A stretch of 64,000 bases of DNA from Chiloscyllium plagiosum (lineage: Eukaryota), in contig NC_057752.1 of assembly GCF_004010195.1 (NCBI RefSeq), forward strand, positions 12,774,381 through 12,838,380. Reading direction: 5' to 3'. Below are positions 11,691-56,267 of this stretch, piece by piece. Position numbers and translations under genes: made by a program. How positions within the stretch are numbered: the stretch's first letter is position 1; every line of letters begins with the position of its first letter. The notes beneath the pieces are model-generated. The model searched no databases, had not been told where the DNA came from, and was given only the letters and a program-made list of their open reading frames with translations.

Positions 11691-11694
11691 GTCT

Positions 11695-17249: not shown

Positions 17250-17520
17250 ACAGAAACAAAAACAGAAATTGCTGGAAAAGCTCAGCAGGTCTGGCAGCAT
17301 CTGTGGAGAGAAATCAGAGTTAACGTTTCAGGTCCAGTGGCCCTTCCTCAGAACTGATGGTAGCTGGGAAAATGTTGGTTTATATGCAGCAGATAGGGTG
17401 GGGGAAGGGATAAGGAGTAAACAATAGGTGGGGATATAGTCCAAAAAGACAAAAGAACAGGTGGACAGTCAAAGGAGTGCATAACAATCTGGCTGGGAGG
17501 GTGAATAGCTGTTAATGGTT
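17250..17520 (-). mobile_element. Penelope-like 3' terminal repeat with hammerhead at 17313-17358
   Basis: Minus strand AGTT-CTGAGGA-agggccactggacct-GAAAC-GTT-AACT; stem I AGTT/AACT pairs. Confidence 0.8.
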
Positions 17521-17812
17521 AAAAATCACACAACACCAGATTATAGTCCAACAGGTTTAATTGGAAGCACTAGCTTTCAGAGCACCGCTCCTTCATCAGG
17601 AGGTTATGGAGGACACAATTGTAAGACACAGAATTAATAGCAAAAATTTACAGTGTGATGTAACTGAAATTATACATTGAAAAATACCTTGATTGTTTGT
17701 TGAGTCTTTCATCTGTTCGAATATCATGATAGTTTCACTTCTTTCATGTGTAAATCACAAAACTTTTCTTTTAAAAGTTACATTCTCAGTTTAACTGTAA
17801 CAATTGGTGTTA
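17521..17812 (-). mobile_element. Second Penelope-like family terminal repeat with hammerhead at 17565-17603
   Basis: Minus strand CTGATGA-aGGAGC-ggt-GCTCT-GAAAG-CTA; stem III is the palindrome AGCT. Confidence 0.75.
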
Positions 17813-17814
17813 GT

Positions 17815-18560
17815 CGGGCAGAACATGATGTTGAACTCTTTTTCCGTCGACTCCGTGCCCATTTCATAGAAGTCCTAGTGTGGAAACAGGTCATTTGGCC
17901 CAATGGGTACACACCAACCCTCTGAAGAGTAACCCATCCAGACCCATCCCCCTACCCTATCCCTGCATTTCCCATGGCCAATCCACCTAACTTGCACATG
18001 TTCAGACTGTGGGAGGAAACCGGAGCACCCAGGAGAAACCTACACAGACACGGGGAGAACGTGCAAACTCCACACAGTCATCCACACAGTGGGATCGAAC
18101 CTGGGTCCCTGGTGCTGTGAGGCAGCAGTACTAACTACTGAGCCATTGTGTCATTTCTTTGGGCAAGGGTCCTCTTCCCATCCCACAGACCCCTTCGCCT
18201 ACCTCCAACACTCTCCCTCCAGCTGGAGCCCTCTCTCTGACCTTTTACCTGCACTTGGCCTGTTCATTGAGAACTGTTGACGTGACATAGTTCACCTCAA
18301 TGTTCTGCCCATCCCGCCTCACCTAATCCAACCTACCTTCCCGGGAACTGATTGCACTCTGTGCTCTCAGATTCAACCCTGACTTTGTTATTCATCCTGC
18401 TGATAAGGGTGGTGCTGTTGTTGCCTGCTGGACTAAACTCTACATTGCAGAGGCTGAGCATCAGCTCCCAGATACCTCCTCCTATCTCCTGCTGGACCGT
18501 GACCCCACCATGGAACATCAGGCCATTGTGTCTACTCCAGTCACCAACTCCAGCCTTCTG
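17815..18560 (+). mobile_element. Decayed Penelope-like ORF (region N-terminal to RT), interrupted by a SINE at ~17865-18150
   Basis: PADKGGAVV motif at ~18397, then LYIAEAEHQLPDTSSYLLLDRDPT. Confidence 0.75.
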
Positions 18561-20276
18561 GACTCATTATCAAGTTCAATAACGAGGGCTTGAGCTCTCC
18601 CATGTCCTTACACCTACCCCCACACACCAGGCCTTGTTATCACACAGGAGGTAAAAACAATGACTGCAGATGCTGGAAACCAGATTCTGGATCAGTGGTG
18701 CTGGAAGAGCACAGTAATTCAGGCAGCATCCAAGGACTGGCAAAATCGACGTTTCGGGCAATCAGATCACTGTCTCAAATAGTAGCCAGGCATGAAACAG
18801 ATGACTGTAAAAGTAATGAACTTTGATTAAGTCATAATTAATGAATTCATATAATGAATAAGTATATTAGAACGTCTGGATTTTCATTTAATGTCATAAT
18901 GTATAATGACTACGTAAGTTGAAGATCTTGAGGAATTTTAGCCACAGTTAAATGCTGTTTAAATAAAGGTATATTTCTGGAACACTGGTAAGGCACAGTA
19001 TACCATACCCTTGTAGAACACTGGTTGTGGAATATGGGAGCTGTTTAAAAGCAAGTTAAACTGGCTGAGCAAAGAAGTCTTCATACTTCTTAGGTGACAC
19101 TTAGCTCTTCCTTTAAATCATGTGTTTATCAACTGGAAGGTGTAATTAAGAACCAATGACATGTATTTAACAACAGGTAGAATCAATGTCTAAGTCAATT
19201 GACTCTGAGGGCTGTTGCGATATAGTGATGGTGTCCCCACTCTGAGCCAGGAAGTTCAAATGCACTTGCTCGAGAGCAGTGTGATGGCATTTCTGAACAG
19301 GTTGATTGAAAAATATTGAGCCTTACTCTGACATGGCGTGATGGTCATCCAGCGATTAAAAACTGTTTTTCATCTCCACAAATAGTTTGTCTTCAAGACA
19401 GAGTCCTGAGATAGTGGATTCTGACTTACATTTTGAGACAGTATGCAGCTGCTGAAGTCATAAAAGTCATAAGTTGGTTAAGAATACACTTTCTTTCATA
19501 AGCTCCTCAAATATTATTATCCAAAGGGTCCTGTTTTGCCTTTGTTGGTTAAGTCCAATCTGAACAAAAGTCATTTACAAATTACGAGCAAAGTGCAGTT
19601 ACTGAAACTAAATTAGTTGATTATGATAACAAAATCAGTGACATGTGCGCTCCCTCTCCATCATGACTCCTTTCCATCTGTGCCCAGGGGCCAGATTCGG
19701 TATTCAGGGAAGATATTAGACCATGACTAATAAGAGTGCTGTGTGTGAAGGTGCTAGCATTAAAGTGCTGCCCATCCCCTGACTGATGAGCAGCTCTTAG
19801 AGAGGGAGGAATTCTGGCTTTTTGGGGGCCTTGATCATGCTGGTTGCATTTTCAAGGGAAGGTAGATGGGATCTAAGTCAATATGTTTATTAATGGAGTT
19901 CTGGTTCACCAACGCTTCACTAGAGACTCTCACTGATGATTTTACCTCATCATGGTGACAAAATGTCTGAAAACAAACCTTCCAGCTCAGCAAGTTAACT
20001 TACATACTTACAATAAATACATCTTCACACATTTATAATTTCACTATGAATACCAAACAATAGAAATTGTCAGATCTTGTATTTGTGTGGGATGTGAATA
20101 ATGAGAAACTACAGGTGAAAAGATATCCCTGACATTTTATCAAATATGGAATGAAATTAATAACAGGTTTCCCCTTCAGCTTGCAAATGATCACAATAAT
20201 TTTGTATAAACATATAAAACTACCCCTCTGACCATACAATTAATACACTGAGTTATAAGTCATCAAACAAATAAGG

Positions 20277-20399
20277 GCTGAAGAAGGGCTTATGCCCGAA
20301 ACGTCGATTCTCCTGTTCCCTGGATGCTGCCTGACCTGCTGCGCTTCTCCAGCAACACATTTTCAGCTCTGATCGCCAGCATCTGCAGACCTCACTTTC
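20277..20399 (+). mobile_element. Hammerhead mini-element (123 bp)
   Basis: 17-bp TSD tcatcaaacaaataagg (20260-20276 and 20400-20416). Starts gCTGAAGAaGGGCttatGCCCGAAACGTC and ends ctcactttc. Confidence 0.9.
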
Positions 20400-20691
20400 T
20401 CATCAAACAAATAAGGCCTCATTCTATGTCATATTGGATACTGACTCTGTTGGTCAGTTTGATAGAATTGGCTTCAGTGGTCAAAGGTCAAGGAAGATAA
20501 AAGAGAAGTAGAGAGCATTTCAGTGTGGATCCCAAACTAGAAATATTAGCAGTAAGGATGAGACTAGGTTTAGCTATGTTTTGGTAGTTTAACAGTCACT
20601 TCAAGTTTTGGATTCAGCAATTAAGACTTTTATTTTACAAGCTCACACAGGCTGACAGAATTGTTATAGCACAGAAAGGGGCCACTTGGCC

Positions 20692-21228
20692 ATACAAAAA
20701 CTGAAAGAACTGCAGACGTTGGAAATCAGACACAAAAACAGAAAAATTCAGCAGGTCTGGTTGCATCTGTGGAGAGAAATCATAGTTAACATTTTGGGAC
20801 AAGTGACTGTTCTTCAGAACTGACAGCAGCTAGGGAAAAGAATCATAGAATCCCTACAGTGTGGAAACAGGCCCTTCAGGCCCAACAAGTCCACACCAAC
20901 CTTTCAAAGAGTAACCCACCCAGACCCATTCCCCTATCCTATTATCCTCCATTTATCCCTGACTAATGCACTTAACCTACACATCCCAAAACACTATGGG
21001 CAATTTAGTATGGCCAATATATAAATTTGCTCCTTACCCCCCTCCCCCCACCCTATCTTCAGCATATAAACTGACATTTTCCTAGCTACCATCAGTTCTG
21101 AGGAAAGGCCACTGGACCTGAAACGTTAACTCTGATTTCTCTCCACAGGTGCTGCCAGACCTGCTGAGCTTTATCCGCAACTTTTGTTTTTGTTTCTGAT
21201 TTACAGTATCCGTAGCTTGTTTGGTTTT
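20692..21228. mobile_element. Inverted pair of Penelope-like terminal repeats around a SINE tail; intact hammerhead at 21091-21136 (+)
   Basis: 20692-20835 is an approximate reverse complement of 21080-21228. AGTT-CTGAGGA-aAGG-ccactgga-CCT-GAAAC-GTT-AACT. Confidence 0.8.
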
Positions 21229-21504
21229 TGTGGGCAATAAATGCTGGCCTCGTCAGCGATACCCACATCCTCTGAATGAATACAAGCAAGGTGAGTGGAG
21301 GAGAGGAGGCCATTGGCACTTATTCAATGACTGGCGACAGGGTCCTAGATCTAAGCCTAGAGCAAGTGTGCTCTTTGCAAAGCCCAAAGCAGGAGAGCTG
21401 CCTGCAGAAAACTGAATGCTGCTTCGAAGCATCTTGAGAAGGTGCTATACAGGTTAAAGGTAAAGTTGCCATAATCCCAGGGCTGCTCTCTTATTAGAGA
21501 GATT

Positions 21505-22040
21505 GGAGTTTTGGAGAACTGTGTCCAGTTCTGGTTGCCCTGTTATAGGAAGGATATTATTAAACTGGAGACGGTTCAGAGAATATTTCCCAGGATGTTG
21601 CCAGGAATGAAGGGTTTGAGTTATAAGGAGGGGCTGGAGAGGCTGGGACTTCTTTCACTGGAGCATAGGAGGCTGAGGGGTGACCTTATAGAGGCTTATA
21701 AAATCATGAGGAATATAGATAAAGTGAATAGCAAGGGTCTTTTCTCTCGGGTGGGGAATTTCAAGTCTAGGGGTGAGAGGAAAAAGATTTTATAAAAGAC
21801 ATGAGGCGCAATTTTTTTACATGGAGAGTGGTTCATGTGTGGAATGAACTTCCTGAGGAAGGGGTGGATGTGGGGACAGTTACAATGTTTAAAAGACATT
21901 TGGATAAGTACATGAATAGGAAAGGTTTGGAGGGATATGGGCCAGGAGCAGGCAGGTGGGACTAGTTTAGCTTGGGATTAGGGTCGGCACGGACTGGTTG
22001 GACCGAAGGGTCTGTTTCTGTGCTGTATGATTCTATGACT
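21505..22040 (+). mobile_element. CR1 LINE 3' fragment
   Basis: LENCVQFWLPCYRKDIIKLETVQR motif and CR1 tail. Confidence 0.92.
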
Positions 22041-22289
22041 GATGATGGCTCAACCTGAGGTTCACCATGCCTCAGACGAGGGGAGAGGTTGAGAAGGAGA
22101 GTGCTTCCATGGTAACCTCAGCCAGTGTGGGGATTGAACCCTGCATTGCAGCCCCCAAGCTTTGAAGCTAACTGACCTCACTACATTAACTCTATCACGG
22201 TATTTGCCATTGTAGGTTAAGAGCGCTAAGGGGGAAGGCAAGTTGTTTTTGCCACTGGAAAGCTTGCCTTTTGCAGTATCACAACACTG

Positions 22290-22650
22290 CCAAACTTTGG
22301 AAGGCCAATGAAACCCTTTGGAAGCGCAACATGGGCAGTGCTGCCACCAACCTGTGCACAGCAAGATTCCACGAGCAGTATTGTGGCCAATGGCCAAATA
22401 ATCTGCAATGCTTTTGTCAAGAGACAAACATCAGTCAGGACCACCAAGGAGAATATCACCCCCCCACTTCTTTTTTGTAATCGTGGGATCCTTTCGCTGA
22501 GCGACCCGGGTAAGGGGCCATCAGACTAGAGAGAAGGCACTCCTGGCACTAGTTCACTCGACACTGGAGCGACTGCTTCAACTTTGTGCTGAAGACTTTG
22601 GAGTGGGTCTATGACTTTGTGACCTTCTGACTTTGAGGCAGGAGGGCTAC
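22290..22650 (-). mobile_element. Old SINE resembling Deu-domain SINEs (related copies ~30070-30330, 31090-31260, 45620-45890, 46860-47240, 54850-55070)
   Basis: Shared gtgggagcttgctgtgcacaaattggctgc-like motif recurs in these copies. The family name is recalled from memory and not verified. Confidence 0.5.
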
Positions 22651-22849
22651 CTATCGGGCTCTGGCTGACATTCACACACAAAGCCAAAACAGGAGGGAGG
22701 CTGTGAGTGCTCATTTTCTCTGCATGCAACACAAAAGGTGACTTGCAAAAGGAGGCAGTGCAACACACTGGGGGCTTTTTGTGAATGCTCAAATTTGTGA
22801 TATATCTGCCCTCCCATCTTGTACTTTGACAATACAAGCCCCAGGGCTT

Positions 22850-22895
<46 letters not shown>

Positions 22896-22898
22896 ACA
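22850..22898. repeat. Compound (CT)n(CA)n microsatellite
   Basis: Directly visible. Confidence 0.95.
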
Positions 22899-23014
22899 AA
22901 TTATCAGATCAAAACTAAATGTTACTTTCCTTACACAAAGTGCTCTTTTTCGATGCAAAAGGACCATTTGCAGTAAGAATGGAAGACCATAACTGCAGCT
23001 ATGAATGTAGCTAG

Positions 23015-23490
23015 GGGAGACTTAGTGGTATTATCACTAGACTATTAATCCAGAAATTCAACTCATGTTCTGTGGACTCGGGTTCAAATTCCACCATGGC
23101 AGATGGTGGAATTTGAATTCAATAAAAATCTGAAACTAAGAATTCACCGGATTTGAAATCAGGAAAAACATCTAGAACGATTACCATGAATCTACTGTCG
23201 ATTGGAAAAGCCCATCGGGTTCACCAACGTCCATTAGGGAGGGAAACTGCATCCTTACCTGGTCTGGCCTACGTGTGACTCCAGACACAAGGCAGTGTGG
23301 GTGACTCTCAGTTGCCCTCTGAAATGGCTTCGCAAGCCATTCAGTTGTATAAACAGGTATAAAATAGGACGTGGACTTCTGCGGTTCAAGATGGCAGTTC
23401 ACGACCACCTTCTCAAGGGGAAACTATGGTTGGGTGATAAATATTGGCCCAGCCAGCGACTCCCACGACCCACGAGTGAATAATTTAAAA
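23015..23490 (+). mobile_element. tRNA-derived SINE, second family (related copies ~30735-31070 -, 46440-46830 -, 56890-57230 +)
   Basis: tagtggtattatcactagact head and ggttcaaattcc B box. The tail (gggcaataaatgctggcc-like) is shared with the LINE end at ~32815. Confidence 0.75.
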
Positions 23491-23831
23491 GCCAGGCCTG
23501 CTGAGAAAAATAAAGCACAGAATTTATTGTAACTCTTTATTGCCCCTCAGAAGGTCTCAGTTTGCAGCTAAGGAGCAATTCTGAGGTGCAGTAATTGTCA
23601 GGTCACAATCACCACAGATAACATACACATCTTACAAACCAGATTACAAAACGAAATGTGCATTTATTTAGTGCCACTCACATCCTCGGGAGGTCCCAGA
23701 GTGCCTCATTGGTCAACAGGATGCTCAGTGGTGGCTCTGTAGCTAAGCATGTTTGCCCCACTGGATAAAGCAAAGTTCCAAAATCAAGCAGTTAAGATGG
23801 TCCACCAATTGTTGGCTTTCATAAGGAAAGG

Positions 23832-23953
23832 AGAAAGTGAGGACTGCAGATGCTGGAGATCAGAGCTGAAAATGTGTTGCTGGAAAAGCACAGCAGGTCA
23901 GGCAGCATCCAAGGAGCAGGAGAATCGACGTTTCGGGCATGAGCCCTTCTTCA
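23832..23953 (-). mobile_element. Hammerhead mini-element
   Basis: 14-bp TSD ttcataaggaaagg (23818-23831 and 23950-23963). Reverse complement of the 20277-20399 element. Confidence 0.9.
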
Positions 23954-24149
23954 TAAGGAAAGGCACAGCAACATTCCACCCCTTCTTTGAATATTGTTAT
24001 GGAAACATCAGCAGCTCCCGGAATCGTCAAGGGGTGGTAATCATAAGATGGTAGAATTTCAAATTAATTTGAGGGTGAGAAACCCGGGTCTCAGATCAGT
24101 GCCTTCAACTTAAATACGGACAATCACAGATGTATAAAGAAAGTTGTCT

Positions 24150-25560
24150 AAATTGAGCTGGGAACATATATTAAGAGAAAGGTCAGTGGGTGAGGAGTGG
24201 CTGATATTTAAGCAGATATTTCATAATGTTCAGTAAAAATTTATTCTCATCATAAAAAAAGACTGGGTGGTAAAGAAGGTGTATGGCATACTTGCCTTTC
24301 TTGGTCAGGGAATTGAATACAAGAGTCAGAATGGATTGCAATTTTATAAGACTTTAGTTAGGCTGTGTTTAGGGTACTGCATTCAATTCTGGTTGCCTTG
24401 CAGAGGGTGCAGAAGGGGTTTACCAAGATGCTACCTGGATTAGAGGGTATGAGTTCTAAGAAGAGGCTGGAAAAACTTGGGTTGCTTTCTCTTGAGCGGC
24501 AGAGGCTCAGGGGAGCCTTATTAGAAATCTATAAAATTATGAGGTATATAGATAGGGTTGACGGTCAGAGCCTTTTACCCAGAGTTAAAATGTCTAAAAT
24601 AGGGGGCATACATTTAAAGTGAGAGGGTGAAAGTTCACGGGAGATGTCAGGGGCAGATTTTTTTAAAATAGAGAGTGGTAGGAGTCTGGAACGAGCTGCT
24701 ATGGGTGCTGGTGGAGGCAGACACGATAGGGACGTTTAAGAGACTTTTAGATAAGCACATGAACATGTAGGGAATACAGGGATATGGGCCAAGGGCAGGC
24801 AGAGGAGATTAGTTTAATTTGGCATCATGTTCAGCTCAACATTCCTGTGCTGTACCGTTCTATGTTTTATTTTCTATGTACGATGTTCTACTCAGTGAGA
24901 GGGACGAACCACTCACAGTTAACAAAAATGGTCAAAGTGAGTATCCGGTCACAAACAAAAGCACATAAAGTAGTAAAAATTAAAGGCAAGCTGGAGGTTT
25001 GGAATGTTTTGGAAACCAGTCACAAATGAATAAGAAAATGAATAAAAAGCGAGAAAATTGATTGAAGTAAACTGGGAAGAGTTTACAGCGTGAGCTTCTA
25101 AAGCTATGTAAAATGAAAGTTGTTAAAGTAAGTGGAGGATGCGACTGGGGAGTGAATAATGGGATCAAGGAAATGGTAGATAATGTAAACCAATATTTTG
25201 GATCGGTCTTCATGTGGTGCAAACTGCAAACATCCCAGAGATAACAAATAACTGAGATGCTAATGGGAGGAAAGAACTTGTAACAGCCTCTACCGTGAGG
25301 GACAAAGTGTGTGACAAACTAAATGGTCACCAGGATTTGGTGGCCTGCATCCAATGGTTTTAAAGGAAGGGGCGGCAGAGATAGTGGAGACTTTGGTCAA
25401 AATATTCCCAAATCCACATATTTAGATTTTCAGAAGGCATTAGATAAAGGGCCACGTAAAAGGTTTTTACAATATATGGTAATACAATATATTAGTTTGC
25501 ATTGAGGATTGGTTCAAAACAGAAAACAGAGAGTAAAGATCAAAGGGTTTTTTCAAGACA
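24150..25560 (+). mobile_element. Old CR1 ORF2 remnant with a younger CR1 3' end (~24262-24890) nested inside
   Basis: YLDFQKALDK motif at ~25420; LQRVQKGFTKMLPG motif and tail in the nested copy. Confidence 0.8.
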
Positions 25561-25596
25561 TTGCTGGAATATCAGTACAGAGGTGTGATTATGCTG

Positions 25597-25968
25597 ATGG
25601 AGGGTCAGTGCTGAGGGAATGATACACTGACAGAATGTCAGTACTGAGGGAATACCGCACTGTCGGAGGGTCAGTGCTGAGGTAATACCGCACTGTCGGA
25701 GGGTCAGTCCAGAGGGAGTGCCGCACTGTCGGAGGGTCAGTGCAGAGGGAGTGCCGCACTGTCGGAGGGTCAGTACTGAGGGAGTGCTGCACTGTCAGAG
25801 GGTCAATACTAAGGGAGTGCTGCACTACCGGAGTGTCAGTACTGAGGGAGTGCCACACTGTCGGAGGGTCAGTGCTGAGAGAGTGCCGCACTGTCGGAGG
25901 GTCAGGACTGAGGGAGTGCCACACTGTCGGAGGGTCAGGACTGAGGGAGTGCCACACTGTCAGAGGTG
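25597..25968. repeat. 36-bp GC-rich minisatellite (about 10 units): GGAGGGTCAGTGCTGAGGGAGTGCCGCACTGTC-like
   Basis: Directly visible tandem units. Confidence 0.95.
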
Positions 25969-26369
25969 TTGCTGCTTGCATGGAATCTGACGCTGAGGAT
26001 CTAGCAGGTCGCTGGGAAAAGTACCATCAATCCCAAGGCACTGATTGGACGAACATTACTTTTCTGCCCAGTGTCTTGGCTGATCATTAGGAACCAACAT
26101 CACAAGATACAAATTATCTCATCATTATCACCTAACCATCTTAAAAGCTCTTGTGGTGTAGTGGTAGTGTCAGCCAAGAAGTCTGGGTTCAAGTCTCACT
26201 TACTCCAGAGGTGTATTATAACATTGTTGAACAGGTTGATTTGCAAAAATGAGCCATAAGGCTGTCTTGTGGGAGCTTGCTGTGTACAAATGAGCTATCT
26301 GACCACTTCGGAAATTGGTGGTAATGAAAAGGCCTCTCTGATTTGCAATTTTAAAAAAAAAAGTCTGCC

Positions 26370-29256: not shown

Positions 29257-29403
29257 CAGGCAGGAGCCTGGAAGAACACAGCAAGCCAGTCAGGACTGAA
29301 GAAGGATTACACATGAAATGTCGACTTCTCCACCTCCTGATGCTGCCTGGCTTGCTGTGTTCTTGCCTGTCTTTTGGGTTCCAGCATCTGCATTTTTTTG
29401 TTG
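29257..29403 (+). mobile_element. Degenerate hammerhead mini-element with short 5' fold-back
   Basis: TSD ctatcaggaaga (29245-29256 and 29404-29415); ctgaagaagg...gaaatgtc core. Confidence 0.7.
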
Positions 29404-29454
29404 CTATCAGGAAGAGCTTGGTTCGCTTGGACTAAACCAACAAGATTTAATGGC

Positions 29455-29716
29455 TGGGGTGTTACAAGAGGTGCGGTGGCAAAGTCTCTCTGCGTAGTCT
29501 GTGTTGTAGGTCGACCTAAGTGGGTTCGTGACCGTAATCCTTTCGGGATCTTTCCTACTTGCCTGCATTCCTGTAGAAACTTGATGTCTGTGTCGATATA
29601 TGCAATCTTCTTGGAGATCCTCCCCACTTTAAGCCGGCGGTTAGTGGTGTCGATAGTAGTCATGATTTGGAGATGCCGGTGTTGGACTGGGGTCCAACAC
29701 CGGCATCTCCAAATTG
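29455..29716 (-). mobile_element. Penelope-like ORF N-terminus with terminal hairpin
   Basis: MTTIDTTNRRLKV...IKFLQECRQVGKIPKGL. TSD agatttaatggc (29443-29454 and 29717-29728). Confidence 0.75.
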
Positions 29717-31499
29717 AGATTTAATGGCAGCATTAATGAGTTTATTTGAGAAGTGCATTGACCAATCAGAGTCTGCTTGCCTGGTTTGAATTCAAACGAT
29801 GGCCTGACAGTCAACTGATCCTTCGCGCTCCATGGTTAGGGTTCTACCAATCTGAGACCACTTGCTAACCAATCAACAGCCTGTTTCATGCAGTGGAAAT
29901 TGTTGGTCTCTTCGAGATTTGGTATTCTTGCAATTCTGTCCTGATGAGGACAAGATCAAATGCTTCAACCTTCTGCTGTTTTAATTCCTCAATGCTGAAG
30001 CGTCATGCTACCAAATGACTTTTTTGAAAAGTTCTTTTGTGGTGTTGTCACTGTCGTGGTTTATAAGCATTTTGTGCATAGCAAGATTCCACCAGCAACA
30101 AATAAGGTCACGACCAGATCGTCGGTCATCAGTGATGTTGACACTGGGAGAGGACACCCCATCTCTTTTGAAATGGGTAGCTGAGAGGGCCTCAGTTTAA
30201 TACTTCACTCGACCAAGCAACACTCTCTCTGTTCTGCAGTTGGAATTCTCGGCCAAGTTGAGGTGTTTAATTCTCTGCAGCAGGATTTAAATGCACAACC
30301 TCCTGTGCCAGAGGTGAGAGTGATACTGTGGCTAATGCAATTCGAAGAGATCGACCTAGCGGTGGCAAAGGGCTGACAGTTAATGTGTAAGGCAGGGATT
30401 AGACAGATGTTGGTGTTTGACCTTGCTTTGGGCCCACTCTCAGATCTGTGCCTTCAGTTGGGAAGGAGGGGGTGGATTGCTGCACTAACAGGGAGCGCTT
30501 TGTGAGAAATCATGGGCAAACAGCCTATAAACTTTCCAGCCATCCCAATTAATTTTGATTTTTCACAGCACATTCCCTGAGAAGGCAGCTCCCTTTGGGC
30601 AGTGTGGGATCTGATGTATAATCATTGGATAGTTTATCCTGAGTGCTTCCAAAAACAAACTACAAGGGCTGTGGGTGGTGCAATAGTTTAGCAGTTTGTT
30701 TCCAGCTCTGGCTGGCGAGTGCTAGATTTATATTTTTAAAAAATTCATTCACAGGATGAGGGCATTGCTGGGTAGGCAGCATTTATTGCCCATCCCTAAT
30801 TGCCCAGAGGTCAGTTAAGAGTCAACCAGATTGCTGTGGATCTGGAGTCACATGTGGGCCAGACCAGGTAAATATGGCAGTTTCCTTCCTGAGAGGTCAT
30901 TCGTGAACCAGATGGGATTTTCCGAATAATGGTTTCATTAGACACTTAATTCCAGATTTCTTTTTAATTAATAAATCCATCTGCTGTGGTGAGACTCAAA
31001 CCCAGAACTTTATCTGGGTCCTTGGATTAACAGTCTAGTGATAATACCACTAGACCAGCACCTCCCCAATTAAGCTGTAACAGTCGGACCATGAAGTGTT
31101 TTTTTTTCTATAGCTACTTTCATGACCACAGGACATACATTGGCTGCAAAGAGCTTTGGAAGTATTTTCGAAGTGTTGCCACTGCCGCTACAGAGGAAGC
31201 ATGGCAGCCAATTTATGCACAGCACACTCCTAAAAACAGCAATCTGATAATGATCAGGAAAAACAACACCTTGAGTTTAAATTGCGTATTTATGTAAAAA
31301 GCCATTACAGAGGTAGAATGAAAATTGGGACTGAACCAAATAAAGAGTGTTTAAAATCAAACAAACAAGAATAGGACTTATACAGTTAATTTTTTTTTTA
31401 GATTAGATTAGATTAGATTACTTACAGTGTGGAAACAGGCCCTTCGTGAAAATTGGGACTGAACCAAATAAAGAGTGTTTAAAATCAAACAAACAAGAA

Positions 31500-32208
31500 T
31501 AGGACTTATACAGTTAATGATAGGGCCTTAGGCCGTAGTGTAGAAAAGAGAGATCTAGGGGTTCAGGTACACAATTCTTTGAAGTTTGCATCACAGGTAG
31601 ACAGGGTGGTTAGGAAGGCATTTAGCATGTTTACCTTCATTACTCAGACATTTGAATATAGGAGTTGGAACGTCATGTTGAGGTTGTACAGGACATTGGT
31701 GCGGCCTCTTCTGGAGAACTGTGTCCAGTTCTGGTCTCCCTGTTATAGGAAGGGTGGAGAGGGTTCAGAAGAGATTTATCAGGATGTTGCCAGGATTGGC
31801 GGGTTTGAAATATAAAAACAGGCTGGAACTTCTTTCACTGGAGTGTAGGAGATTGAGGGTGACCTTTATTAAATCATGAGGGTATAGATAAGGTGAATGG
31901 CAGCTGTCTTTTCCTGAGGATGGGGGATTTCAAGACTAGGTGAGAGGAGCAAGATTTTAAAAAGACAGGTGGGCATTTTTTTTTTACACAGAAAGTGGTT
32001 CGTGTGTGGAATGAACTGACAGAGAAAGTGGTGGATTGCAGGTACAGATACAACATTTAAAAGACATTTGGATGAGTACATGAATAAGAAATGTTTGGAG
32101 GGATATGGGCCAAGCGCAGGCAGGTGGGACTAGTTTAGTTTGGGATTATGATCAGTATGGACTGATTGGATTGAAGGGTCTGTTTCTCTGTTGTATGACT
32201 CTGACTAT
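31500..32208 (+). mobile_element. CR1 LINE 3' fragment
   Basis: LYRTLVRPLLENCVQFWSP motif and CR1 tail. Confidence 0.92.
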
Positions 32209-32811
32209 GGTCAAAGCTCAGTGTTTCAAAGGTGACAGGTTGGGGGTGGGGGAGGGATGAAGCTTTTCATACTTAAAGGAAGAGTGAAAGACAGAAACTT
32301 AAAAAAAAAACTGGAAAAAAGTTGATGGCGAGTGGAGTGGCATTGTTTTCAGGGTGAGTGTAGTTCATTCTTCAAGGGTAATGTCTTAATCAACTGGAGT
32401 TGATCTGCCTGGTTTAAATGTAAACAAAACTTGGCAGTTCACTGTCAGTCATCATTTAACTGGTGTATTCTGTGTGGTAATGCCTCAACCAATCAAAATC
32501 GCTTGCCAACAAATTAGCACTCAACTCAGACAGGATAAAATGTACCTGTGATGGTGGTATTCTTGTGAACTGTCCTGATGAGTGCAGGATGCAAATTTTA
32601 ACAAAATGGATTTTTTTTTCCATCAGTACTCAGGAAGTGCCAATGCAAGGACTGGGAAGGCATCAAGCAGGAATGATATAATAAATATAGATGAAGAGAT
32701 TCATTAATTATAGTGTGGAAAGATAACAGTAAGTAATTCCATGCTTCAAATTATTCGAGAGCAGCAATCAGGAAGGATTGTTTTTGAGAGCGATCTTAGG
32801 AGCTGATTAAA

Positions 32812-33400
32812 AAATTTTTCCATGGGATGCCAGCATCACTAGCTGTGCCCAGTATTTATTGCCCCGTCCCTCATTGCCCCTTGAGAAAGTGGGGGTGAAC
32901 TGCCTTTGTGAACTCCTGCAGTCCATGTGCTGTAGGTAGACCCACAATGCCTTTAGGGAGGGAATCCCAGGACTGTGTCCCAGCAACAGTGAAGGAACAA
33001 TGATATATTTCCAAGTCAGGTGGCTTGGAGGGGAACTAGCAGGGGTGGTGGTATTTATCTGCTGCCCTTGTTCTTGAAGCAGGAAGTGGCTGTGAGTTTG
33101 GAAGATGCTGTCTAAAGATCTTTAGTGACCTTTTGCAGTGTACCTTGTAGATGGTACACACTGCTGCGACTGAGCGTCAGTGGTGGAAGGAGTAGATGTT
33201 TGTGGATGTGGTGTCAATCAAGCGGGCTGCTTTGTCCTGGATGGTGTCAAGTTTCTTGTGTTGTTGGAGTTGCACCCATCCAGGCAAGTATTCCATCACA
33301 CTCCTGACTTGTTCCTTCCAGATGGTGGGCAAGCTTTGGGGAGTCAGAAGGTGAGTTAATTTCTAGAAAGATCACAATGTCTGATCTGCTCTTGTAGCCA
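32812..33400 (-). mobile_element. CR1/L2-group LINE 3' end
   Basis: RT C-terminal-like minus-strand sequence whose tail matches the second SINE family. Confidence 0.65.
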
Positions 33401-33404
33401 CAGT

Positions 33405-34905
33405 AAGATCATAAGACATAGGATTGGAAGTAAGGCCATTCGGCCCATTGAGTCCACTCCGCCATTCAATCATGGCCGATGGGCATTCCAACTCTACTTA
33501 CCCGCATTCTCCCAGTAGCCCTTAATTCCTTGTGACATCAAGAATTTATCAATCTCTGCCTTGAAGACATTTAACGTCCCGGCTTCCATTGCGCTGCGTG
33601 GGAATGAATTCCACAGGCCCACCATACTCTGGCTGAAGAAATGTCTCTTCGTTTCCATTCTAAATTGGCCCCCTCTAATTCTAAGGCTGTGCCCACGGGT
33701 CCTGGTATCCCTGCCCAACGGAAGCAATTTCCCAGCGTCCACCCTTTCTAAGCCATGCATTAACTTCTAAGTTTCTATTAGATCTCCCCTCAACCTTCTA
33801 AACTCTAATGAATATAATCTCAGCAGTTCATCGTATGTCAGGCCTGCCACTCCAGGGATCATCCGTGTGACTCTCCGCTGGACACGCTTCAATGCCAGTA
33901 TGTCCTTCCTGAGGTGTGGGGCCCAAAATTGGACACAGTATTCTAAATGGGCCCTAACTAGAGCTTTATAAAGTCTCAGAAGGACATCACTGCTTTTATA
34001 TTCCAACCCTCCTGAGATAAATGACAACATTACATTCACTTAGTCACAGACTCAACTTGCAAGTTAACCTTTAGAGAATTCTGGACTAGCACTCCCAGAT
34101 CCCTTTGTACTTCGGCTTTATGAATTTTCTCACCGTTTAGAAAATAGTTCATGCCTGTATTCTTTTTTCCCAAATGCAAGACATCGCATTTGCTCAAGTT
34201 GAATTTCATCAGCTATTTCCTGGACTACCTTCCTAAACTATCTAAATCTTTTTGCAGCCTCCCCACATCCTCAGTACTACCTGCCTGTCCACCTAACTTC
34301 ATATCATCAGTAAACTTTGCCAGAATGCCCCCAGTCCCTTCATCCAGATAATTAATATATAAACTGAACCCTGCGGGGCACCACTTGTCACCGGCTGCCA
34401 TTCTGAAAAAAACCTTTTATCCCAACTCTCTGGCCTTCTGTCAAACAGCCAATCCTCAATCCATATCAGTAGCTCAGCAGCCTCCCGTGAGGCACCTTAT
34501 CAAAGGCCTTTTGGAAGTCGAGATAGATAACATCCATTGGTCTAACCTACTTGTTACCTCTTCAAAGAATTCTAACAGGTTTGTCAGGCACGACCTCCCC
34601 GATCACAACCAATGCCTTAACTATTTCCTCAGCCACCTCTCTCAGAACTCTAGCATGCAGCCCATCAGAGTCAGGAGACTTATCAATTTTTAGACCTTTT
34701 AGCTTTTCTAGCACTTTCTCTTTTGTAATGGCTACCATACTCAACTCTGCCCCCTGACTCTCCTTAATTGTTGGGATATTACTCATGTCTTCTACTGTGA
34801 AGACTGATGCAAAGTACTTATTAAGTTCTCCAGCTATTTCCTTATCTCCCAGCACTAGCCTTCCTGCATCAATTTGGAGCAGCCCAATGTCTAGTTTTGC
34901 CTCTC
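33405..34905 (-). mobile_element. CR1 LINE ORF2 with internal deletions plus 3' tail
   Basis: LNKYFASVFT, KSPDSDGLH and HLEYCVQFWAP motifs. Confidence 0.93.
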
Positions 34906-35940
34906 GTGGGAGACCGTACACATGTAGTGTGTCGGGATTCAGCCACTGCCCAAATATATACCCGGCAGCCCTCTGCTCCTCGGTGTGGCATCTCCCTCTG
35001 CTGCACCTTTAAAACTGATCTTGTACCCTCCCTTCCCGCAGCCCTCACCTCTCTCCGTCCTCTCTCCTCACTGCTCTAAAAATGAAGGCCCGACTCCTGA
35101 GATAAGTCCCTTTTTAAGTGGGAAAACCTACCCTTCCCGGCAGCCCTTGGTTCTCTCCGCCCTCTCTCCTCGCGACTCTGTATTATACAGTATTTATATA
35201 GCTGGTCTATGTTGTATAAGATAATGATTTTGAAGGGGTTGCTGTTTATGTTACATTGGTTCCACCCATTCTACCAATGTCACACACAATCTGTGAGTGG
35301 AGCCAATGAATTTTACTCTTCCTTTGAGAGGGGAGATGGATCTGTACCAGTTCTCTCAGGGGCCAGGAATTTTGCCTGATCAAATGTAGTTGGCCTTATT
35401 CCAATAAACTTGTTATCTAAGAACAGCCTCTTCTGGAGATACTCTGTAATGGTGTATCCTCTAAACCTAAGCAACGCAAAGGCCCAACGCAAAGCAAAGA
35501 CAAAGAAGGGTTGATGGGTGTGGACCACCTCAAACAACCCCATCCAGTACCACACACCGACATAAGGTGTCAGGAATGATCATCTGGGGAAATGCCACAG
35601 TCTAGCTCGATTTCTGGCCAACAGTAACGCCAAGGATGTTGATAGCAGGGGATTCAGCGACAGTAACGCCTTTTAATGTCAAGCAAAGATGGATTAATTC
35701 TGTGAAGGTTGAATTTTGCCAGATCTCACTAAGTAAATGTTTGTGTGAATCGTTTATTCTGAAAGGATTTTGGAATAGCGATATCGTAAACCCTCCTCTG
35801 TGACATGTCCCTTTCTGTGGCAGCAAAATAACGTGTATAAAGAGGTTTGAATGATTCTTGATAGAAGCAGAGACCTAAGGCCACATTCCCTGTGTACATT
35901 CCAGCTCTGTCACCTATGCTGGATACCAATAAGGTCTGTT

Positions 35941-37624
35941 ATGGTTCTGTTCGCCGAGCTGGGAATTTGTGTTGCAGATATTTCGTCCCCTGTCTAGGTG
36001 ACATCCTCAGTGCTTGGGAGCCTCCTGTGAAGCGCTTCTGTGATCTTTCCTCCAGCATTTGTAGTGGTTTGAATCTGCCGCTTCCGGTTGTCAGTTCCAG
36101 CTGTCCGCTGCAGTGGCCGGAATATTGGGTCCAGGTCGATGTGCTTATTGATTGAATCAGTGGATGAGTGCCATGCCTCTAGGAATTCCCTGGCTGTTCT
36201 CTGTTTGGCTTGTCCTATAATAGTAGTGTTGTCCCAGTCNNNNNNNNNNNNNNNNNNNNNNNNNNNNNNNNNNNNNNNNNNNNNNNNNNNNNNNNNNNNN
36301 NNNNNNNNNNNNNNNNNNNNNNNNNNNNNNNNNNNNNNNNNNNNNNNNNNNNNNNNNNNNNNNNNNNNNNNNNNNNNNNNNNNNNNNNNNNNNNNNNNNN
36401 NNNNNNNNNNNNNNNNNNNNNNNNNNNNNNNNNNNNNNNNNNNNNNNNNNNNNNNNNNNNNNNNNNNNNNNNNNNNNNNNNNNNNNNNNNNNNNNNNNNN
36501 NNNNNNNNNNNNNNNNNNNNNNNNNNNNNNNNNNNNNNNNNNNNNNNNNNNNNNNNNNNNNNNNNNNNNNNNNNNNNNNNNNNNNNNNNNNNNNNNNNNN
36601 NNNNNNNNNNNNNNNNNNNNNNNNNNNNNNNNNNNNNNNNNNNNNNNNNNNNNNNNNNNNNNNNNNNNNNNNNNNNNNNNNNNNNNNNNNNNNNNNNNNN
36701 NNNNNNNNNNNNNNNNNNNNNNNNNNNNNNNNNNNNNNNNNNNNNNNNNNNNNNNNNNNNNNNNNNNNNNNNNNNNNNNNNNNNNNNNNNNNNNNNNNNN
36801 NNNNNNNNNNNNNNNNNNNNNNNNNNNNNNNNNNNNNNNNNNNNNNNNNNNNNNNNNNNNNNNNNNNNNNNNNNNNNNNNNNNNNNNNNNNNNNNNNNNN
36901 NNNNNNNNNNNNNNNNNNNNNNNNNNNNNNNNNNNNNNNNNNNNNNNNNNNNNNNNNNNNNNNNNNNNNNNNNNNNNNNNNNNNNNNNNNNNNNNNNNNN
37001 NNNNNNNNNNNNNNNNNNNNNNNNNNNNNNNNNNNNNNNNNNNNNNNNNNNNNNNNNNNNNNNNNNNNNNNNNNNNNNNNNNNNNNNNNNNNNNNNNNNN
37101 NNNNNNNTCGAATGAGACCATGGTTTCTTCCTTGTCTATGTGTATATTTCTGATGATGTCCAAGAATTCCTGTGTTGATTGTATAGAGTGTCTGGATCCG
37201 CTGATCAGGTGTTTCAGTTTCTGCTGTAGTTCTTTCGCCAGTTTGTGTGATGGTGTCCCTGGTAGTGATACTCTGGGTCTGAGTGGGATGTCTGGTTTGT
37301 GCACTTTAGGTAGTCGTCTGGGGGTGTTGTTGCTTTCAGGTTTCATTCTTTGTAGGTCAAACCTGGTTATCTGTCTGTTTTTTTTGTAGGTTCCTCAGTG
37401 CGTTGTTTATCCTATTGGTGAGCTGTGGGGGTGGGGTCAAACTCCCTCTTTTGGTAGGTGTTGGTATCTGCAAGTAGTTGTTGCGCTTTCTGGATGTACT
37501 CTGCTTTGTCCTCTGAGGATGTCACCTAGACAGGGGACGAAACGTCTGCAACACAAATTCCCAGCTCGGCGAACAGAACCACAACAACGACCTCCCGAGC
37601 TACAAATCTTCGCACAAACCATGA
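35941..37624 (-). mobile_element. Penelope-like element (RT to GIY-YIG C-terminus, centre in gap) with inverted terminal repeat
   Basis: LPKVHKPDIPLRP...MVSF and REFLEAWHS motifs. 16-bp TSD accaataaggtctgtt (35925-35940 and 37625-37640). Hammerhead cores at 35973-36013 (-) and 37513-37550 (+). Confidence 0.92.
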
Positions 37625-37939
37625 ACCAATAAGGTCTGTTCTGTGTGCACTACAAGCATCTTGTACTAACTCAAAAGTTGCTATTGGGAGGCAGAGAAAA
37701 TTGGAGGTTGATGAACAGTTGCATTTTAACACTGACCAAGGAAAAGCCTCTGATAAAGAAGCTGGTAGTAGCAGTCTGGGTAGGAATCTGAATGTTGTGG
37801 AGCAAGATTGTGAAGGATTTGAAAGGAGGATAAGGATCCTGACATTGGTTCACCCTGAGATGAATCATCACCTTCCAAATCTCATGCAAAACACAGGGTG
37901 TAATCTTATTAGGTTCAGAGTGACGTGGGTTATAGCAAG

Positions 37940-38990
37940 ATAGGTGGTTCTCTAATAGAAGGCAGAGAGTTGGGATAAGGGGGGCAATTTCAGGATAGCA
38001 ACCTGTAACTGGTGGAGTGCCACAGGGGTCAGTGCTGGGGCCACAATTATTTACGACATGTATTACTGACTTGAATGAGGAAAGTGAATGTACTGTAGCC
38101 AAATTTGAGAAAACACAAAAATATGTGGAAGGCAAGTGGTGAGGATGACACACAGACTCTGCAGAGGGATATAGAATGAAGCAAAATGACTGGTCAAAAA
38201 CTTGGCACATGGAATATAATGTGGGGAAAACTGTGAGGTTATTCACTTTGGCAGGAAGAGGAGGAGCTGAATATTATTTAAATGGAGAAAGACTTCAGTA
38301 AGCTACAGAACAGAGGGATTTGGGAATCCTCATCCATGAAGCACAAAAAGCGAGCATCCGAGTTCAGCAGGGAATAGGGAAGGCGAATGGAATGTTGCTC
38401 TTTATTCCAAAGGGAATGGAGTATAAAAATAGGGAGGATTTGCTAAAACTATACAAGGCACCGGTCAGACCACAGCTGGAATACTGTGAACAGTTTTGGG
38501 TCCCTTTATCTGAGAAAGACAAACTGACATTGGAGGCAGTCCAGAGGAGGTCCACTCGGCTGATCCCGGGTATGGAGGGACTGTTAGGGTTACAGACCCT
38601 TAGAAAATAGGCAACAGGTTTAGGTAGAAGATCTGGATTGGTGCAGGCTTGAATGGCTGAAGGATCTGTTCTTGTGCTGTAATTTTCTTTGTTCTCTTTG
38701 TTTCATGACGAGAGGTTAAGTAGGTTGGGCCTACACTTGTTGGAATTTAGATGAATGAAAGGTGACCTTATTGAGACATACAGGATTCTTAGTGGACTGG
38801 ACAGGGGACATGTGCAGAGTTTGTTTCCCCTTGTGGAAGAGTCTAGGACCAGAAGGTATAATTTCAGAATAAGGGGTCGCCCATTTAAGATAGAGATGAG
38901 GAGGAATCTTGTCTCTGAGATCAGTGAATCTGTGGAATGGTGGAGCCTATTCAATGGGCTGAAAGGCCTATTTGTGCTTCAGTGTCTTAT
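37940..38990 (+). mobile_element. Decayed CR1 LINE RT and 3' region
   Basis: [10 protein letters not shown] and RPQLEYCEQFW motifs. Confidence 0.9.
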
Positions 38991-39339
38991 TGTCAACTCA
39001 GTAGGGGTTGCAATCTTACCAAACCTGCCACACAAACTAACCATCAGGAAGGCTTGACATTGAAACCAGAGTGGGCTTTTAGTAGGTTCAACTCACCAAT
39101 TGATCCAAAAGACCTCCATATGGGATACCAAACAGTTGGACAGGCTCCAAGGGCATCAGTCACATGCAGCCTGCATTTCAGTTACCAACTGGCCTCTTCT
39201 CTTTCCCACCCCCAAATTCCCCAGCTGTCAGGGACACCAACGTTACCCTTCTTCCCACCATTTCCCTGCTGGAGCCTGAAAGTTGCCGGCTTTTGATTGG
39301 CTGGCAAGTCTCAGCCTTTCAAGGTCTCCAGGGTCTTGA

Positions 39340-39900
39340 TTTTAGGGGAAGGCTCCGCTGGTGGTTTTGGCGTCGCTTGATTGGTTTGTGCTTTGGCGGT
39401 TTTCCCCCCCGCGAGGCGCTCTCTGCTGGCTTTGCAGCCGGGGTCCCTGACAGACAACAATATTCTGGCATGTACTTTATACCGCTAACTTAGGAAGTCG
39501 AATCCCACAGTCTCGCAACTGTCGGTGTGAAGAGGTTTTTTTTCCCACATCCAAATGTCTCACGTTGAACTTTGTACCTATAGCCCCTTCACTTTAGATC
39601 CTTTTACGTTATCTATAATGTCGTCGAATTATTCCCTGAGAGAGAGGCCTTTGCAGATGTAGCGTTCGTCTTATCAGCGAAACGTAAAGAATGTCACTCT
39701 CGTTTCGAATAGTAAAACCCGTCATCCTCCACCTCGAAGTCTATAAGGCAAGTCGCACCAGTCTCTCTGTCGCCAGTTTCCTGGTTATTTCTGTATGGTC
39801 GCTGTTCAGCCTGTTGGATGGGCGCAATGCTGCAGGAGCTGAGTGATGGACACCCCAGGGGCGGGTTACACAGTGGGAGAGAAGGAGATTCCGAAATGTG
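39340..39900. promoter_or_regulatory. CpG-island-like promoter candidate
   Basis: About 30 CpGs in ~550 bp of non-repeat sequence. Inverted CCAAT (gattgg ~39379), GGAAGT ~39493 and TATA-like words at ~39476 (-) and ~39742 (+). Confidence 0.55.
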
Positions 39901-40128
39901 AAAGAGAAGTTTCTATGACTTAAAACCCGGCCAGATTTACCAAAACATTTCAATGTGAAGTAAAGTTAGTGTTATTTTCTAACCACCCTGTTCAAGGATG
40001 TTATGACACGCCTCTAGAGCAAGTGGGTCTTGAACCTGGGCTTTCTGGCTGTGACATTACCAATACAGCACAAGAGTCCTTGAAGTATCATTTTAAGCAT
40101 ATTCAGCTATAAGCTTATTTAAGCATCA

Positions 40129-40327
40129 CACAACACCAGGTTATAGTTCAACAGGTTTATTTGGAAGCACTAGCTTTCAGAGTGCTGCTCCATCATCACA
40201 TAGCTAACTGATGAAGGAGCAGTGCTCTGGAAGCTAGTGCTTCCAAATAATCCTGTTGGACTATAACCTGGTGTTGTGTGACTTTTAACTTTGTCCACCC
40301 CAGTCCAACACTGGCACCTCAACATCA
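40129..40327. mobile_element. Fold-back Penelope-derived mini-element (AGCT-type hammerhead family)
   Basis: 13-bp TSD tatttaagcatca (40116-40128 and 40328-40340). ~75-bp inverted arms, each with a mutated CTGATGA..GAAAGCTA core. Confidence 0.85.
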
Positions 40328-40639
40328 TATTTAAGCATCAGCATTAACACTTCCACTAACAGGAGTCAGTACCCACAGTCCAAAGATGTACAAGTTAGGT
40401 GGATTAGCCATGGTAAATTCACGGTTACAGGGATAGTTTTGTTTGGATAGTTGATGTAGACTCGGTGGGCTGAATAGCCTGCTTCCACACTGGGGATTCT
40501 ATGACATGGGGTTGAAGTTGAAGAAACAGCAGGGAGTTGAGAATTTTTTTTCATGTGCAGTCCTCCACTGAGAGTAGACTAAATGCTGACTGAGTTTCCC
40601 TCCAGTCAGTCTCTGGTATGAACCTCAGCTCCTGGTCAC

Positions 40640-41062
40640 CAGCCCACTGTGAGCTTTCTGTTCTTTACTTCCTGCACTGGTCTAATGAGGCTCAACTGCA
40701 AACTTGAGGAAAAACACCCCCTCATTCAATTGGGGCATCTTCCAGCCTTGAAAACTAACATTGAATTCAAAAACTTCAGATGTCAATCTGTAGTCCATAT
40801 GTTCTGGAGGCAGTTGTCTGTTATGAAACAGTTTGTCCCCCCATACCCATTTTCACCTACGTGCACGTTTCTTGTTTCTCTACTGCTTCCATTATCAGCC
40901 CCTGTAGCCTTGCACCATTGTCCCTTTTGTTATAGAATCCCTTCTCTCTTCCATCCAATTCCAAACCTTCCCCTTGGCCTCTTTTCCTGCTTCTGACCAT
41001 GCTTGAAATGAATCATTTGTTTTTCCTGTCCTGATGAAAGGTCATCGACCTGAAACATTGGA
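40640..41062 (+). mobile_element. Old Penelope-like 3' end with hammerhead at ~41028-41060
   Basis: KLEEKH..IQLG..NIEFKNFR C-terminus; CTGATGA-aAGGTC-atc-GACCT-GAAAC-ATT. Confidence 0.7.
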
Positions 41063-56030: not shown

Positions 56031-56267
56031 ATCTGGCGGCTATATAATGTCTTTGTATAATGTGACAGTAAGTACGTGTGACTACACACTGAGCAGAATG
56101 TTATAGGGTCCTGGGCTATATTAAGATTTGTGTCAGAATTAAGAAGTCTGGTCAGACCCCTCTCAGTAAGATAATCTCACACCATCTTTCATCCTTTTGA
56201 TGGGGATGGTGAGGAGTGCCTCGGTAGGGTGTATTGAAATAAGGCTCATTTACCTTATCTCTACCAA

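Follow-up and report, generated by a model that had tools for sequence, protein, structure and literature searches.

Introduction

What are the hammerhead-like cores crowded into a short piece of shark DNA, and do they still act as ribozymes? The stretch in question, hereafter the window, comprises 64,000 nucleotides of repeat-rich DNA from Chiloscyllium plagiosum (contig NC_057752.1, positions 12,774,381 to 12,838,380) with three N gaps, and all counts below refer to this 64-kb window. An initial annotation made from the letters alone described at least five distinct families of minimal, dimer-dependent hammerheads. Our analysis indicates that the motifs are very probably minimal type-I hammerheads in the pseudo-long terminal repeats (pLTRs) of endonuclease-bearing Penelope-like elements (PLEs), namely Poseidon (family d), at least two Neptune-type lineages (families a/b/e and family c) and an unclassified family f. 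The record of PLE hammerheads is thus extended to a shark, at very high local density.

Association of the motifs with Penelope-like elements

The PLE has one open reading frame (ORF) comprising reverse transcriptase (RT) and C-terminal GIY-YIG parts, and ORF fragments in the window match relatives that carry RVT_1 and GIY-YIG. The ORF of the family-d insertion (Table 1) is 88–95% identical in amino acid sequence to PLE-type proteins of Chiloscyllium punctatum over the matched parts. The upstream RT...GIY-YIG ORF stops within loop II of the hammerhead, an in-frame ATG lies at the foot of stem II, 28 nt ahead of the cut site, and the frame read along the plus arm is that of the N-terminal end of a C. 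punctatum protein. The Poseidon-type relatives P0001 and P0010 contain no CxxC; the corresponding part of the window copy is an N gap. In the anole Poseidon element PAc (Anolis carolinensis), the ORF starts at stem II and the cut lies 26 bp downstream (Frangieh et al., 2024, PMC11167929). Family d shares this layout, with the ORF start at stem II and the cut 26–28 nt downstream in the two elements, and resembles PAc also in its two 3' ends ∼35 nt apart, its AC-rich tail end and the lack of a CxxC linker. The family-d hammerhead (35997-36010, 37513-37626) overlaps the last codons of the upstream ORF and the first codons of the downstream ORF, and coding constraints may shape its stems.

Family a is joined to a different type of ORF. 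A decayed reading frame at 42710-41700 encoding an RT thumb, a CX4CxxC linker and GIY-YIG ends in an a-type 3' end, and a CX2-5CxxC linker before GIY-YIG is present both in this ORF and in P0019. Family e is preceded by the C-terminal end of a Neptune-type endonuclease (E 0.003). The family-c tail runs into a PLE ORF start at 29663-29451 (P0026, E 9e-11; N-terminal profile, E 4e-4), and the Heptranchias relative of this start, P0026, matches the Neptune-type P0018 (E 8e-12) better than the Poseidon-type P0003 (E 0.005). Such a linker is a mark of both Neptune and Nematis (PMC8557442), and Neptune and Poseidon are the only PLE groups reported from vertebrates according to a preprint (10.64898/2026.07.22.740005); we infer Neptune for this reason, although the linker is shared with Nematis. 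The a-linked ORF has the CX2-5CxxC linker before a C-terminal GIY-YIG as do Neptune-clade PLEs (Craig et al., 2021, PMC8557442), and the window copies share with the PLEs of that study 5' truncation, an adjacent inverted copy, a one-sided tail and a hammerhead in the pLTR. At 29670-29715, where the family-c tail joins an inverted copy upstream of the ORF start, the sequence forms a short perfect hairpin.

The architecture of the insertions is likewise that of PLEs. An inverted 5'-truncated copy together with a one-sided 30–40-bp tail is the PLE signature (PMC8557442), and the window shows hammerheads in the 3' terminal repeat, one-sided tails and inverted 5'-truncated arms. The inverted arms lack the ∼35-nt tail that the main arms carry. 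Nine of the 18 zones searched, among them 7 of the 9 zones of family a, carry target-site duplications of 12–17 bp. PLE-derived stretches also occur in annotated shark and ray isoforms of NT5DC1, MAP3K7, WBP2-like, CUEDC2 and DIPK1C (P0004, P0007, P0013, P0014, P0022), which are either exonised elements or annotation artefacts.

Kinship of the families

The families had been presented as at least five distinct ones with unrelated flanks. Profile searches argue otherwise: a family-a profile matches b copies at E 3e-14 and 1e-11 via a common 3' flank, and a family-b profile matches e weakly (E 0.032). The sequence upstream of the e motif aligns with that of the b copy at 21098 at a score reached by 1 of 1442 random segments; the corresponding counts are 2 of 1443 against 17351 and 28 of 1439 against 58085. 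Families a, b and probably e are therefore related. The initial annotation missed PLE membership and so counted subfamilies as five unrelated ribozyme families. A sixth family, f, is formed by the remnants at 29941 and 32575, which align at a score of 43, the best of 2877 random segments reaching 30. The two are old homologous remnants that have CUGAUGA and lack GAAA, and had been listed simply as remnants. Judged by sequence relatedness, the window holds three or four lineages in all: a/b/e, c, d and f.

Hammerhead structure

All families fit the published consensus of metazoan PLE minimal hammerheads (comparison with the PMC4209133 supplement, Fig. S3), in agreement with the earlier description of minimal hammerheads with a loopless palindromic helix III. 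That consensus (Cervera and De la Pena, 2014, PMC4209133) and the window motifs have in common CUGANGA, a bulged base, stem II, GAAA, a 2-nt palindromic 15.2/16.2 helix, NUH and, at least in families b and d, a short stem I. Both boxes of the core (CUGANGA ... GAAA ... NUH) are kept in 10 of 29 segments, from families a to e. The stem II sequences and cleavage triplets assigned by the initial annotation (GUC in a, GUU in b, CUA in c, GUC or AUC in d) were recovered as described.

Stem II, which follows a bulged base after the core, was compared across five family representatives anchored on the two boxes. Eighteen of 20 cells are paired, a level reached by 2 of 120 permutations including the identity, and pairs 3 and 4 each occur as three Watson-Crick types. 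Covariation is thus found for stem II across families and is weak within the a/b/e alignment. Stem I has 4 bp in b, 3 bp in d, and 2 bp followed by a mismatch and one more pair in a; in c it is not visible, the 5' strand being missing or changed. Its third pair is G-C in the young d copy 36010 and U-A in the old d copy 19933.

The helix III palindrome is ACGT in a, b and d and AGCT in c; family e has ACAT, and the CpG has decayed in several copies. TG or CA stands at this CpG in 29296, 61986, 20817, 19933 and 41031, as is usual in methyl-CpG decay. The ATAT at 36010 had been listed among the palindromes; it does not count as independent evidence of a selected palindrome, since the sister arm of the same insertion has ACGT. 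The best reading takes it as ACGT after double CpG decay; a compensatory palindrome was considered and rejected on the sister arm and on the TG/CA of other copies.

Motif census and completeness

CUGANGA occurs 71 times in the window, compared with 41.1 ± 6.3 times in 60 approximate dinucleotide shuffles, which served as the null for motif counts. The full descriptor (core, stem II of at least 3 bp, GAAA, loopless palindrome, UH and stem I of at least 3 bp) matches three times, at 17351-, 21098+ and 36010-, and in none of the 60 shuffles. Searches with family profiles, which training copies match by construction, identified 29 motif-bearing segments in ∼25 insertions: 12 segments of family a, 7 of b, 1 of e, 4 of c, 3 of d and 2 of f. 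CUGANGA is kept in 16 of these, and CUGANGA with GAAA in 10; eight keep CUGANGA, GAAA, stem II and a Watson-Crick palindrome, and three of the eight also have a 3-bp stem I.

All ten copies and five remnants named by the initial annotation lie where it placed them, and its figure of about 20 cores or remnants is, if anything, low. The remnants sort into d-type (19933), a-type (29296), b-type (58085) and family f (29941 and 32575). The description of the named copies as intact does not hold up, as 7 of 10 are incomplete and only 17351-, 21098+ and 36010- keep all elements including the 3-bp stem I. At 20278 and 37513, flank or the inverted ORF arm has replaced the 5' strand of stem I; 40208 shows GGAA in place of GAAA and begins at the core; 17599 has one stem-I pair, 61990 has two, and 8656 has two, a U.U mismatch and one more; 41031 carries ACAT at helix III and so has no palindrome. 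Taken over the window, the majority of copies lack the stem-I 5' strand. A flank-derived stem I suggested by the descriptor for 20278 was rejected because it uses target DNA. Core counts overstate the number of working ribozymes, given that 3 of 29 segments are complete.

The high motif density is real within the window and reflects PLE copy number. Coelacanth and Xenopus genomes carry 4,000 and 9,000 hammerheads, respectively (PMC4209133); with a single window as the sample, three complete motifs in 64 kb correspond to ∼8–30 times those densities. As in the PLEs of PMC4209133, several consensus families share one genome, most motifs are single ones derived from truncated PLEs, and second motifs lie nearby on the opposite strand; the supplements of that paper other than file 1 include no shark. 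Beyond the window, the exact family-a pattern gave 0 matches in metagenomes. A stem-free pattern hit 44 metagenome and 4 viral loci, which were read as chance: stem I and stem II both have at least three pairs in 2 of the 48, and none is blastn-similar to the window.

The 5' edge of short copies

Positions in the motif are numbered from C3 of the core as +1, which places the family-a cut after +28 (cut site, +29). The nine tail-bearing family-a arms begin at about -12 (at most), -4, +1, +1, +2, +2 to +6, +4, +6 and +16; in families c (40208) and d (37513) the tail-bearing arm begins at +1. The sample is small, and the boundaries were read by eye from duplications and inversions. Family-a tail-less arms begin at +1, +10 and roughly +50 to +66. 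Not one of the nine tail-bearing arms starts at +29; the templates were therefore uncleaved, and cleavage was rejected as an explanation of the 5' ends. Genomic support for insertion from uncleaved RNA comes from copies whose start lies at the motif's front edge and never at its cut site, and this record of insertion geometry is the useful part of the window.

The family-a arms are 110–138 nt long, and the nine copies are 71–95% identical, which argues against one master copy. Arms down to 38 nt were detected by the profile search, so shorter tail copies would mostly have shown up. If arms are truncated exponentially from 45 nt, the probability of a range of at most 28 nt is 0.018 to <1e-6, depending on the mean, and 0 of 2,000,000 draws combined such a range with all lengths of at least 100 nt.

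Five family-b copies have upstream sequence (17351-, 21098+, 20817-, 57596-, 58085+). All five carry YAG at -5 to -3, in the 5' strand of stem I, and four of the five have a pyrimidine run with AG near -13. To judge from these letters, the two features would fit a candidate 3' splice acceptor at helix I, as described for Drosophila Penelope.

Dimer dependence

PLE minimal hammerheads have low activity as dimers and none as monomers (PMC4209133), and a review citing Lunse et al. (2016) supports dimer cleavage (PMC6765202). The label 'dimer-dependent' thus suits the class as the literature describes it; for the loci in the window, with 7 of 10 named copies incomplete and the pairs inverted, it does not apply. 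Four insertions hold two motif-bearing arms, all of them head to head and none head-to-tail. The window contains no same-family head-to-tail pair that would serve as a cis dimer, and none of the 10 tandem rows reported by Tandem Repeats Finder holds a hammerhead motif. One inverted pair folds into a hairpin of -168.9 kcal/mol that buries the motif. The same-strand neighbours 17599 and 17351 have incompatible palindromes (AGCU and ACGU), and 20278, 820 nt from 21098 on the same strand, is without stem I. Since the pairs are inverted, no tandem array bears the motif, neighbouring palindromes are incompatible and family b has the slow-cutting GUU triplet, the loci in the window are unlikely to be working ribozymes. 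Most of the copies are inert passengers.

Discussion

The PLE assignment has to be weighed against a set of results that speak against it or against the reading of the 5' edge. The permutation test of stem II includes related families, and the independent families a, c and d alone can reach only 1/6. In the a/b/e alignment (14 rows), five covariation measures were reached by 81, 335, 10, 451 and 45 of 500 shuffles, so that a single measure (10 of 500) is conspicuous. Rfam returned no hammerhead in the window at E up to 5; the 16 matches are all to microRNA (miRNA) or small nucleolar RNA models under gathering scores, and those to miRNA models fall on inverted insertions and simple repeats. A nearest-neighbour model, run without a positive control, put the double-hammerhead fold of five motifs 9–26 kcal/mol above the dimer minimum and gave intermolecular helix III a probability of at most 0.01. 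The window's own PLE fragments gave no Pfam match, none of the b copies has a physical link to an ORF within the window, and family f has neither an ORF link there nor GAAA. Regarding the edge, b/e copies show no 5' pile-up, with starts from -22 to beyond -300, and 2 of the 9 family-a arms (56393, 18760) are without duplication, so that their 5' ends are less certain.

Some of these results would be expected if the hammerhead-like pattern were chance or a relic without structural selection, with the repeat families alone being real. Covariation within families is weak, the energy model does not favour the target fold, Rfam reports no hammerhead and CUGANGA by itself is expected 41 times. That explanation is nevertheless barely credible: the three full-descriptor matches contrast with zero in 60 shuffles, core, GAAA, spacing, bulge and palindrome are conserved between Poseidon and Neptune, two unrelated lineages whose stem sequences change in a compensatory manner, and the same motif has been published for PLEs of many animals (PMC4209133). 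Also quite improbable is the reading that the loci belong to an independent, retrozyme-like non-autonomous family of functional dimer-dependent ribozymes, whose transcripts pair via the palindrome, self-cleave, circularise and reinsert. Such a family would account for the loopless palindromes of eight copies and for the permuted unit at 8493-8785, in which tail end and presumed ORF start come before the hammerhead and 16 nt recur at both ends, the arrangement expected from a circular or tandem template. Non-LTR retrozymes are similarly non-coding and short and have a type-I hammerhead (PMC7229834; preprint 10.64898/2026.07.22.740005); according to the preprint they are PLE-derived and are present in the sole chondrichthyan it sampled. 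Yet retrozymes are defined by head-to-tail tandem units with complete hammerheads, of which the 10 tandem rows of the window contain none; each of the four insertions with two motifs is inverted, only 3 of the 29 segments keep every element, no copy starts at the cut site, and the same-strand neighbours 17599/17351 and 20278/21098 make poor partners.

The rival that bears most directly on the edge takes family a as a ∼125-nt non-autonomous element resembling a short interspersed nuclear element (SINE), whose masters begin at the hammerhead and are moved in trans by the Neptune protein, so that the constant 5' end would be no more than the end of the element. The uniform length of 110–138 nt with duplications and the 12 segments in 64 kb are what it would produce. 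We regard it as unlikely, since the same edge recurs in subfamilies merely 71–95% identical, in the c tail arm at 40208 and in that of Poseidon d at 37513, which belongs to an insertion with an ORF; at 41686 a Neptune ORF is continuous with an a-type end, and the starts are ragged (-12 to +16). Membership of the motifs in PLEs is the reading we retain. It contributes little in the way of a new ribozyme: for PLEs the published norm is several minimal-hammerhead families in each genome.

How PLE insertion could generate these copies is suggested by anole Poseidon. The element protein would nick DNA and prime reverse transcription at two internal sites ∼75–125 nt downstream of the hammerhead, the template being uncleaved RNA, and a second priming would yield the inverted tail-less arm. 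For family a and the tail arms of c and d, copying would usually stop at the front edge of the motif. For PAc in vitro, cleavage needs protein and is dispensable for insertion (PMC11167929). Insertion from uncleaved RNA, as in PAc, fits the window copies, with activity shown for PAc and the present elements known from their sequence. In intact tandem masters the ribozyme would probably be a slow, protein-assisted or dimeric cutter of precursor RNA, dispensable for insertion.

The role of the PLE hammerhead has been stated as an open question (PMC8557442, PMC11167929). We tentatively propose, as a possibility short of probable, that the hammerhead fold of shark PLEs delimits the copied RNA at its 5' side rather than marking the cut point. 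Copying, primed internally at the tail, would run off or be arrested on reaching the front edge of a hammerhead that is uncleaved and protein-bound, and both Neptune and Poseidon would become sources of uniform, SINE-like end-pieces of ∼125 nt. As to the cause of the edge, the candidate that comes nearest to being probable is that the template RNA begins there, with a start site or an end made by processing. That copying is arrested or switches template at the protein-bound core is more doubtful, short non-autonomous master copies are somewhat unlikely, and some other cause has only a slight chance. If the proposal is true, the PLE hammerhead gains a non-catalytic role that can be read from genome sequence alone, and end-pieces unable to self-cleave could be substrates in trans, or decoys, for intact ribozymes. 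With its high copy number, a shark genome allows a direct test of what causes the edge. Our search, which left subscription literature largely outside, found no paper on shark PLE hammerheads or on a pile-up of junctions at the motif. The parts of PMC4209133 consulted describe no piling up of 5' ends at the motif, and Fig. S2 of PMC11167929 (genomic coverage) may already show the edge.

Feature inventory and neighbouring sequences

The segments and their boundaries are listed in Table 1.

Table 1. Motif-bearing and associated segments of the window, grouped by family
Feature	Coordinates	Strand	Details
Family d, one Poseidon-type PLE insertion	35941..37624	both arms	16-bp target-site duplication at 35925 and 37625
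Family d, minus arm	37512-35941	-	5'-truncated RT...GIY-YIG ORF, complete hammerhead (core 36010), tail-less end; N gap 36240-37107 inside arm
Family d, plus arm	37513-37624	+	begins at C3 of core, carries tail
d-type old remnant	19850..20000	both	core 19933 (+); inverted Poseidon endonuclease fragment 19850-19900 (-), E 1e-4
Decayed Neptune-type PLE	41615..42710	-	RT thumb, CX4CxxC linker, GIY-YIG, then family-a 3' end; hammerhead front half deleted, similarity resumes at 41686
Family a, solo end-piece	20278..20401	+	C3 to tail; 17-bp duplication; without stem I 5' strand
Family a, rearranged unit	8493..8785	+	12-bp duplication; tail end and ∼140 nt of presumed ORF start precede hammerhead (core 8656 through tail); 16-nt tail end at both ends
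Family a, solo end-piece	23831..23953	-	begins at +2 to +6; 14-bp duplication
Family a	59166..59315	both	short inverted tail-less arm and main arm from +4; 14-bp duplication
Family a, older subfamily	56267..56433	both	main minus arm from +2, short inverted arm; no duplication found
Family a, head-to-head pair	61902..62114	both	12-bp duplication; folds as single long hairpin; tail-less minus arm from C3 (61990), tail-bearing plus arm from +6
Family a, head-to-head pair	1727..1906	both	16-bp duplication; tail-bearing minus arm from -4 (core 1833, mutated), plus arm from +10
Family a, old copy	29270..29400	both	core 29296, short inverted arm; 12-bp duplication
Family a, old copy	18654..18760	-	begins at +16; adjoins Neptune-type RT fragment 18149-18548 (+)
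Family b, complete minimal hammerhead	17251..17421	-	core 17351; stem I 4 bp, stem II 3 + 1 pairs, ACGT, GUU
Family b, complete minimal hammerhead	21027..21230	+	core 21098
Family b, remnant	20695..20840	-	core 20817, GAAA lost
Family b, remnant	58031..58173	+	core 58085; 5-pair stem II, GAAA half deleted
Family b, remnant	57462..57615	-	core decayed; profile match E 2e-17
Family b, remnant	43467..43566	+	3' part only; profile match E 1e-11
Family b, remnant	210..305	-	profile match E 3e-8
Family e	40700..41060	+	Neptune-type endonuclease C-terminal remnant 40700-40792 (E 0.003), pyrimidine-rich 3' untranslated region, hammerhead 41031 with 5-bp stem II, decayed helix III (ACAT) and 2 stem-I pairs
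Family c, inverted insertion	40129..40327	both arms	13-bp duplication; 9-nt linker between arms; tail-less minus arm begins at +2 (40198), plus arm with tail at C3 (40208)
Family c, copy	17518..17599	-	retains core, AGCT palindrome and 5-pair stem II; stem I with 1 pair
Family c, old copy	1018..1110	+	broken core; profile match E 6e-15
Family-c tail end into Neptune-like PLE ORF start	29451..29693	-	short inverted junction
Family f, remnant, unclassified	29860..29985	+	core 29941, GAAA lost
Family f, remnant, unclassified	32495..32620	+	core 32575, GAAA lost

The rearranged family-a unit at 8493-8785 is inserted at the edge of a 40-bp satellite, and its permuted order fits a template jump or a circular RNA of ∼280 nt. 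Tested as an ORF start against an N-terminal PLE profile, 8537-8645 gave no significant match. The satellite (2655-8500) is an array of the 40-bp unit in ∼141 copies with 76% match, and its internal hairpins draw weak matches to miRNA models.

Pfam identified an RVT_1 match, an RT fragment, at window 10735-11748; this and other RT fragments are presumably CR1-type. Two a-type ends, at 41615 and 61901, lie in or next to the same CR1-type sequence (41544-41615, 61830-61900), which reflects either a shared target preference or chance. The 16 other ORFs of at least 100 amino acids in the window had no Pfam match, and a host-gene context was not established. One ORF of 102 amino acids at 58302-58610, acidic and serine-rich and without a Pfam match, may be a host exon. 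A 33-bp tandem repeat at 25599-25966 (11 copies at 86% match) is open in several frames.

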